Shown here: positions 51,435 to 51,485 of the stretch, piece by piece
Numbering within the stretch: position 1 is the stretch's first letter
Layout: each line of letters opens with the position of its first letter
Origin: Octopus vulgaris
Lineage: Eukaryota
Direction: 5' to 3'
DNA length: 64,000 nucleotides
Assembly (NCBI GenBank): GCA_951406725.2
Contig: OX597830.1
Coordinates: 50,840,001 to 50,904,000, forward strand
The notes under the pieces: generated by a model
Database searches by the model: none
Seen by the model: only the letters and a program-made list of their open reading frames with translations
What the model was told of the DNA's origin: nothing
Made by a program: the position numbers and the translations under genes

Positions 51435-51485
51435 TCACAGTTATCTGATGAACAGTGATGTGAAACTCAGAGTAATAGCTTGTGA
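51435..51485 (+). ncRNA. Minimal type I hammerhead ribozyme, all core nucleotides present
   Basis: UCACAGUUAU-CUGAUGA-ACA GUGA UGU-GAA-ACUC A GAGU-A-AUAGCUUGUGA; predicted cleavage after GUA at 51474. Confidence 0.75.

Follow-up and report, generated by a model that had tools for sequence, protein, structure and literature searches.

The window analysed here is a stretch of 64,000 nucleotides from Octopus vulgaris (contig OX597830.1, positions 50,840,001 to 50,904,000, forward strand), and coordinates are those of the window unless a locus is named. At 50883..51511 (+) it carries what we interpret as a solo copy of a Penelope-like element (PLE) of the Hydra type, truncated at its 5' end. This copy, 629 bp long, consists of the 3' UTR/pLTR only and has no ORF. 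Homology to dispersed copies (68-81%) begins at about 50883 and ceases at 51511, and tblastn of the ORF of a young relative against the window gave no match. The T-rich 3' UTR (50883..51434, +) contains an (ATTAT)n expansion at 51349-51402, found by TRF; at some other loci GIY-YIG remnants precede this UTR. It is followed by a type I hammerhead motif (51435-51485, +). The insertion ends with AATAAATAG (51503..51511, +), 37 nt past the predicted cleavage site, which is the family end position. Immediately downstream is a (TA)n/(TATG)n microsatellite (51512..51594), the likely insertion target; young terminal copies terminate in (TA)n as well.

All parts of the hammerhead were read from the sequence and are covered by a descriptor search. 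Stem I is formed by 51435-51444 and 51475-51485 and has 10 pairs and one bulge. The core CTGATGA (CUGAUGA in RNA) occupies 51445-51451. Stem II consists of ACA (51452-54) and TGT (51459-61) capped by the GNRA loop GTGA (51455-58), and is followed by the GAAA of the core (51462-65) and by the palindromic stem III ACTC-A-GAGT (ACUC-A-GAGU in RNA; 51465-51473), the predicted dimer interface. By hammerhead numbering, A17 is position 51474; cleavage is predicted after GUA, between 51474 and 51475, so that the 3' product would begin at 51475. The motif agrees with the rule C3 U4 G5 A6 N7 G8 A9 / G12 A13 A14 A15.1 / U16.1 H17 with three stems, open at stem I. The first-pass annotation of this DNA, which had reported a complete core and a stem I of about 10 bp with one bulge, was accurate on both points. 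It had also singled out the A-U closing pair of stem II as unusual. The usual, though not strict, G10.1-C11.1 pair is indeed missing, but A10.1-U11.1 is the family state, found in 76 of 95 old copies (G-C in none), and is no defect. These 95 copies are without L139 (the same locus as L162) and loci L189-L202, and near-identical duplicates were merged. The third pair of stem II is a CpG-decayed G-C pair.

The type I descriptor has this single match in the whole 64-kb window. In 300 dinucleotide shuffles of the window, loose descriptor matches occurred in eight and strict matches in none. The hammerhead motif is real, and a chance arrangement is rejected. Two Rfam scans of the window, with E up to 5 or 10, returned 29 and 4 weak matches, none of them to a hammerhead family; these are microsatellite-driven miRNA/snoRNA noise and were set aside.

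The region as a whole is rich in microsatellites and repeats. The 175 higher-complexity ORFs of at least 60 aa in the window gave three Pfam matches, RVT_1, zf-RVT and a sub-threshold MRAP. The first two mark a broken LINE reverse transcriptase at 36193-37396 on the minus strand (RVT_1 E 9e-16). The MRAP match, at 28264-28458 (minus strand), scored 23.3 against a cut-off of 27 bits and is probably spurious. At 50616-50881 (minus strand), adjoining the truncated 5' end of the PLE, lies a piece of a further abundant repeat; its coding-like frame is broken, and the piece is probably the 3' part of a LINE. Further upstream, a unit of 184 bp from an abundant SINE-like repeat, presumably the octopus SINE, is repeated in 6.5 tandem copies (47588-48764), with further partial tandem copies at 50217-50548.

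A homology search had been proposed in the annotation as a check on the family and its PLE linkage. When run on the 2.8-Gb genome, with 40 of 67 candidates scored, it uncovered a dispersed family of 45 matches at 74-90% besides the self match; a second search with another copy as query gave 1,062 candidates, such samples being biased toward their query copies. Exact genome-wide patterns with U11.1 were found 2,685 times with CCGA, 305 times with CTGA and 242 times with the dead core CCAA. The youngest wave, with A11.1 and hence an A·A closure, accounts for 4,068 exact-pattern matches, and CTGA is present in 98 of the 100 first-listed. Reversed control patterns gave no matches, compared to these 2,685, 305, 242 and 4,068. 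The commonest core of the old family is CCGACGA, which is the substitution U4C.

The four CpGs of the family are altered in 247 of 752 cells, compared with 51 of 755 cells for core sites that are not CpGs, with a CG/TG/CA spread. Since CTGA (305) is close to CCAA (242), compared to 2,685 for CCGA, most U4 copies of the U11.1 type look like decay products, with CTGA nevertheless exceeding CCAA (p=0.008). In a set of 23 copies retrieved through homology to the UTR or EN, positions 4-5 are CG in ten, TG in eight, CA in one and other letters in four. Many copies form divergent inverted pairs, in which one arm runs into a tail and the other stops in a microsatellite; in 8 of the 14 pairs that are not young, the two arms carry different letters at positions 4-5. 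The strict regular expression for pairs overlooked several decayed ones, including TG/TG pairs, and TG stands in both arms of several inverted pairs of the window type (L011, L012, L023, L024). Over the downstream 105 nt, identity to the young unit declines in steps from one variant class to the next, from 0.985 to 0.776 (59 tail-bearing copies), the loop class of the window being the last. By the exact-pattern counts, the older masters carried CCGA, and the series fits a single lineage in which C4 preceded the present U4/A·A form. In stem I there are C-G/A-U changes between subfamilies, and the loop, the bulge and N7 vary freely, in an alignment chosen for intact copies and with controls that ignore relatedness.

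The U4C lineage is a minor curiosity, for which no first-report status is claimed. A literature search for U4C hammerheads in retroelements gave nothing relevant; the variants of Lünse et al. (2017), who reportedly described PLE minimal and variant hammerheads, lie outside that search. According to PMC3088659, U4C strongly lowers activity in vitro, yet is sufficient in a viroid, and active exceptions to G10.1-C11.1 are recorded.

Two peculiarities of copy arrangement were observed. The inverted pLTR pairs of L007 (about 1490-1510) and L008 (about 1570-1580) are joined at a short palindromic sequence, TGATCA, immediately upstream of stem I, which suggests template switching guided by microhomology. 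The copies L065-L068 and L073-L075 (C31, C6, C7) are old and near-identical, have a short duplication after the cut site, and were probably carried by segmental duplication or by a larger repeat.

The annotation had further proposed an association with Penelope elements, and this is borne out by the family. A GIY-YIG (EN) remnant, the window-type UTR and the hammerhead follow each other on one strand in L162, L172 and likewise L091; the EN remnants of L162 and L172 have 44-55% amino acid identity to the young ORF. In L169 the remnant and the window-type UTR are in inverted arrangement, and an inverted terminal copy is present in L162, L163 and L190. An intact young relative, L189, consists of tandem units of 3,430 bp that are 99.8% identical, with a homologous hammerhead in each pLTR. 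It encodes a frame of 726 aa with RT plus a GIY-YIG at its C-terminal end, in which the motifs FDI/PMG/YRDD were read by eye; 23 further frames are 90.6-97.5% identical to it. The single RT + GIY-YIG ORF of EN+ PLEs is thus whole in L189, present as remnants in copies that share the window UTR, and absent from the window copy. Searches of the PLE frames, including that of 726 aa, against Pfam and PDB sequences recognised no domain or structure. The Atlas neighbours of the 726-aa frame lie at 0.96-0.99, and in some clusters PF01541 (GIY-YIG) is assigned to 26-50% of the members. The family also has the general PLE layout, that is, partial tandems with a pLTR, inverted 5'-truncated copies and a one-sided tail, with the hammerhead inside the pLTR and sense to the ORF. 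A preference for insertion at (TA)n is seen in the flank of the window copy and in the young terminal copies.

The clade was read from motifs. Firstly, RWK and DKT together with a C-terminal EN occur in four of four full-length frames and in L189. Secondly, the CxCX5C linker is intact in L246, L248, L256 and L258, the second C being replaced by F in the other loci listed. Finally, the L189 frame has no cysteines between GIY and YIG, and has CxxC and CxH around E and N. According to PMC8557442, RWK, DKT, the CxCX5C linker, the lack of the CCHH cysteines and CxxC/CxH define the Hydra clade. By these criteria, the family is a PLE with Hydra-clade motifs; its comparison with Hydra-1_Obim was by eye. 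The Neptune clade was rejected, as the CCHH motif and the CX2-5CxxC linker are missing. Another candidate parent, the PLE of L119, was reached via a GIY-YIG remnant beside L042 and rejected: its pLTR hammerhead is different and has a long stem II. It belongs to a second intact PLE family (L119:3040-9359, with L122, L124, L125, L129 and L130), with a frame of 899 aa, a tandem period of about 3.6 kb and, in the pLTR, a hammerhead-like motif that differs from the one here and has a very long stem II.

An end or a tail junction 37 nt past the predicted cut was found in 67 of the 80 copies examined, the window copy being one of this kind. A tail is present in 43 of the 80 and absent from 37; the window copy is solo and tailless. 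The AATAAA that the annotation had placed at about 51503 is located at 51503-51508, at the insertion end of the element. The tandem units of the young relative L189 run on past AATAAA into the next ORF, so that a poly(A) role is no more than putative.

Stem III had been described as ACUC/GAGU with a one-nucleotide loop. The palindromic letters are present, but a hairpin loop of one nucleotide is sterically unable to close, and therefore stem III of the monomer would have 3 bp and a CAG triloop; the stem of 4+4 bp with a central A·A arises in the dimer form only (duplex of -7.4 kcal/mol by cofold). This dimer model agrees with PMC4209133 and PMC6765202, and with the annotation's view that a near-loopless palindromic stem III is a hallmark of PLE hammerheads that cleave as dimers. 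The minimum-energy fold is not a hammerhead but a rod, in which UCUGA of the core pairs with UCAGA of stem III (z -0.99). In an energy model without tertiary contacts, the hammerhead fold of the window copy makes up about 1e-5 of the thermodynamic ensemble. The pairing of core and stem III is predicted for the two U4 variants whose loop III is A (L189:5657-5722 and window 51430-51490). The C4 copy L181 reaches the hammerhead fold more readily, with 1.4e-2 against 1e-4 to 1e-5 for the U4 variants.

Over its 51 nt, the window hammerhead has 10-11 differences from the commonest letters of the family, four of them at CpGs (U4, U7, 10.3 and 11.3). Among the 95 old copies, no other combines the canonical core with all 17 pairs when the register is held fixed; if the bulge is allowed to shift, one of 41 subfamily copies does so as well. 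Column resampling within the subfamily yielded an intact fold in 0.6% of cases, and at a frequency of 2.5e-4 jointly with at least nine differences. One explanation would be domestication, in which selection has preserved this copy because it cleaves itself within a transcript of the host, AATAAA serving as a nearby 3' signal. All 11 differences spare the fold, including two G-C to A-U swaps, and this is rare in resampling. However, one of these swaps is plain CpG decay and is present in 11 of 94 other copies, and the best-looking copy was chosen by the reader from among thousands. No cis partner is present in the window, where a profile search found no second hammerhead copy, and the predicted fold sequesters the core. 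No host-gene domain was seen in the 175 ORFs of at least 60 aa, although short exons would escape such a search. A further argument comes from sequencing run X2, one contig of which covers 51410-51512 with five differences, all of them at 51458-51469. In this contig stem III is broken and stem II has A·C, while the ancestral letters are retained at 11.3 and in loop III. Neighbouring UTR contigs in runs X1-X3 differ by 15-17 letters in 460; among the contigs listed for X1 and X3, none spans the hammerhead. The X2 contig, one contig of one run with orthology inferred, is probably the ortholog of the window hammerhead, and such an ortholog speaks against selection for cleavage. We regard domestication as highly unlikely.

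The CUGA core of the window copy is itself somewhat more readily explained by CpG decay than by descent, given that CCGA (2,685) outnumbers CTGA (305), which in turn is near CCAA (242); the discordant inverted pairs and the X2 contig point the same way. The intactness of the copy in the register and resampling comparisons speaks against decay alone. The TG/TG inverted pairs make U4 templates possible, and because of them the decay origin of U4 is favoured only modestly. That this copy is a working ribozyme is not supported: it is old and solo, the window holds no second copy, U4 may be due to decay, and the probable ortholog lacks stem III pairing.

A second explanation is that the repeat is not a truncated PLE but a non-LTR retrozyme, a non-autonomous hammerhead repeat that forms circular RNA. 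The window copy indeed has no ORF, and retrozymes derived from PLE pLTRs are reported in 10.64898/2026.07.22.740005. Against this, the copy is not in a tandem array of 200-400 bp and no tandem unit was found, the 5' ends vary among copies, and elsewhere the UTR continues into EN-coding sequence; we assign this explanation a very low probability. Chance resemblance to a hammerhead, for which one could cite the lack of Rfam hammerhead matches and the folding z-score of -0.99, is practically nil in view of the strict shuffle result (0 of 300), the thousands of homologues and the C-G/A-U changes in stem I between subfamilies.

What has been shown comprises a hammerhead motif that belongs to a dispersed family, a UTR and hammerhead linked to GIY-YIG remnants, an intact young relative in tandem units, a fixed 3' end 37 nt beyond the predicted cleavage site, and a flank of (TA)n. 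With considerable confidence we conclude that the locus represents the 3' end, hammerhead included, of an old PLE copy with Hydra-clade motifs that was truncated on its 5' side, and that it is likely a passive fossil, whose perfect-looking core is likely in part the result of CpG decay. Against this conclusion stand the unusual intactness of the copy for its age, the excess of CTGA over CCAA, the TG/TG inverted pairs, the single contig behind the ortholog and the lack of any Pfam domain in the 726-aa frame.

Such a copy could have arisen as follows. The PLE protein would nick a TA-rich site, and reverse transcription would begin about 37 nt downstream of where the ribozyme cuts, as we infer from PMC11167929. 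The 3' ribozyme of the template must have been uncut at priming, because the window copy includes the whole hammerhead. Uncut RNA as the main template, as in the same source, would account for copies that include the complete hammerhead and a further 37 nt. Reverse transcription would then halt after about 630 nt and leave a 5'-truncated copy. In the parent elements, weak cutting by pairing of the palindromic stems III of two tandem units may process multimeric transcripts, if the dimer model of PMC4209133 and PMC6765202 applies here. Lacking a cis partner, the window copy, if transcribed at all, would be limited to cutting in trans or to slow cutting as a monomer; likely it does nothing today.

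With a start of reverse transcription 37 nt downstream of the cut, a ribozyme that cleaves efficiently would strip away the end used for priming. A more tentative reading, which we consider doubtful, is that the PLE lineage keeps its ribozyme deliberately weak, each amplification wave carrying a handicap. The first handicap might then have been U4C with the A-U closure (2,685 exact copies). After the return of U4, an A·A closure and the core-sequestering UCUGA/UCAGA helix (4,068 copies) may, equally tentatively, have taken its place. If true, the successive masters would be a natural experiment in which ribozyme strength is tuned against transposition.

PLE hammerheads of this layout are already published, and the window locus is an ordinary member of little importance in itself. 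Two points are more general. CpG decay can give an old repeat a perfect core and what look like compensatory changes, and therefore single copies need to be judged against their family. Thousands of CCGA-core hammerheads in the genome would escape CUGA descriptors, and with variants that can be placed in order of age, the role of PLE hammerheads and the cutting strength they require become simple to test.

Among known systems, the nearest are the hammerheads of Hydra-clade PLEs as given in File S2 of Craig et al. 2021 (PMC8557442), with Hydra-2_aMil and Hydra-2_aJap the closest to the window. They share type I topology, the sense strand, a position near the 3' end, the GUA cut, the (TA)n target, stem III actc-N-gagt with a loop of one nucleotide, and ctgt/acag in proximal stem I. 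Hydra-2_aMil has a nearly identical design, including the GNRA loop II gtga, and pairs other than G-C at 10.1-11.1 are common in File S2, as in our family. On the other hand, every Hydra row of that file has the core ctga and none has ccga, stem II is only 2-3 bp long in the window family, and the L189 units of 3.43 kb exceed the published "generally <3 kb". The hammerhead of Hydra-1_Obim is of another kind, its stem II being long. The one-sided tail is characteristic of PLEs according to the same source.

The minimal and variant PLE hammerheads of Cervera and de la Pena 2014 (PMC4209133) share the pLTR location, the palindromic stem III, the predicted dimer cleavage and the occurrence mostly as solo truncated copies and opposite-strand pairs. 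Their min-HHR is without helix III, keeps G10.1-C11.1 and has an extra unpaired base, whereas the window family has a helix III of 4 bp and A-U or A·A at 10.1-11.1, with G-C in none of the 95 old copies.

The PAc Poseidon element of Frangieh et al. 2024 (PMC11167929) also starts reverse transcription inside the RNA, which leads to a one-sided tail, and has an AT-rich target; uncut RNA is its main substrate. It belongs to a different clade, and its hammerhead overlaps the ORF start, while in the window's family about 155 nt separate the hammerhead from the next open frame downstream. Metazoan non-LTR retrozymes (PMC7229834) likewise carry a type I hammerhead in a non-coding repeat. Unlike them, the window copy is not in a short tandem array and is a truncated piece of a coding element.
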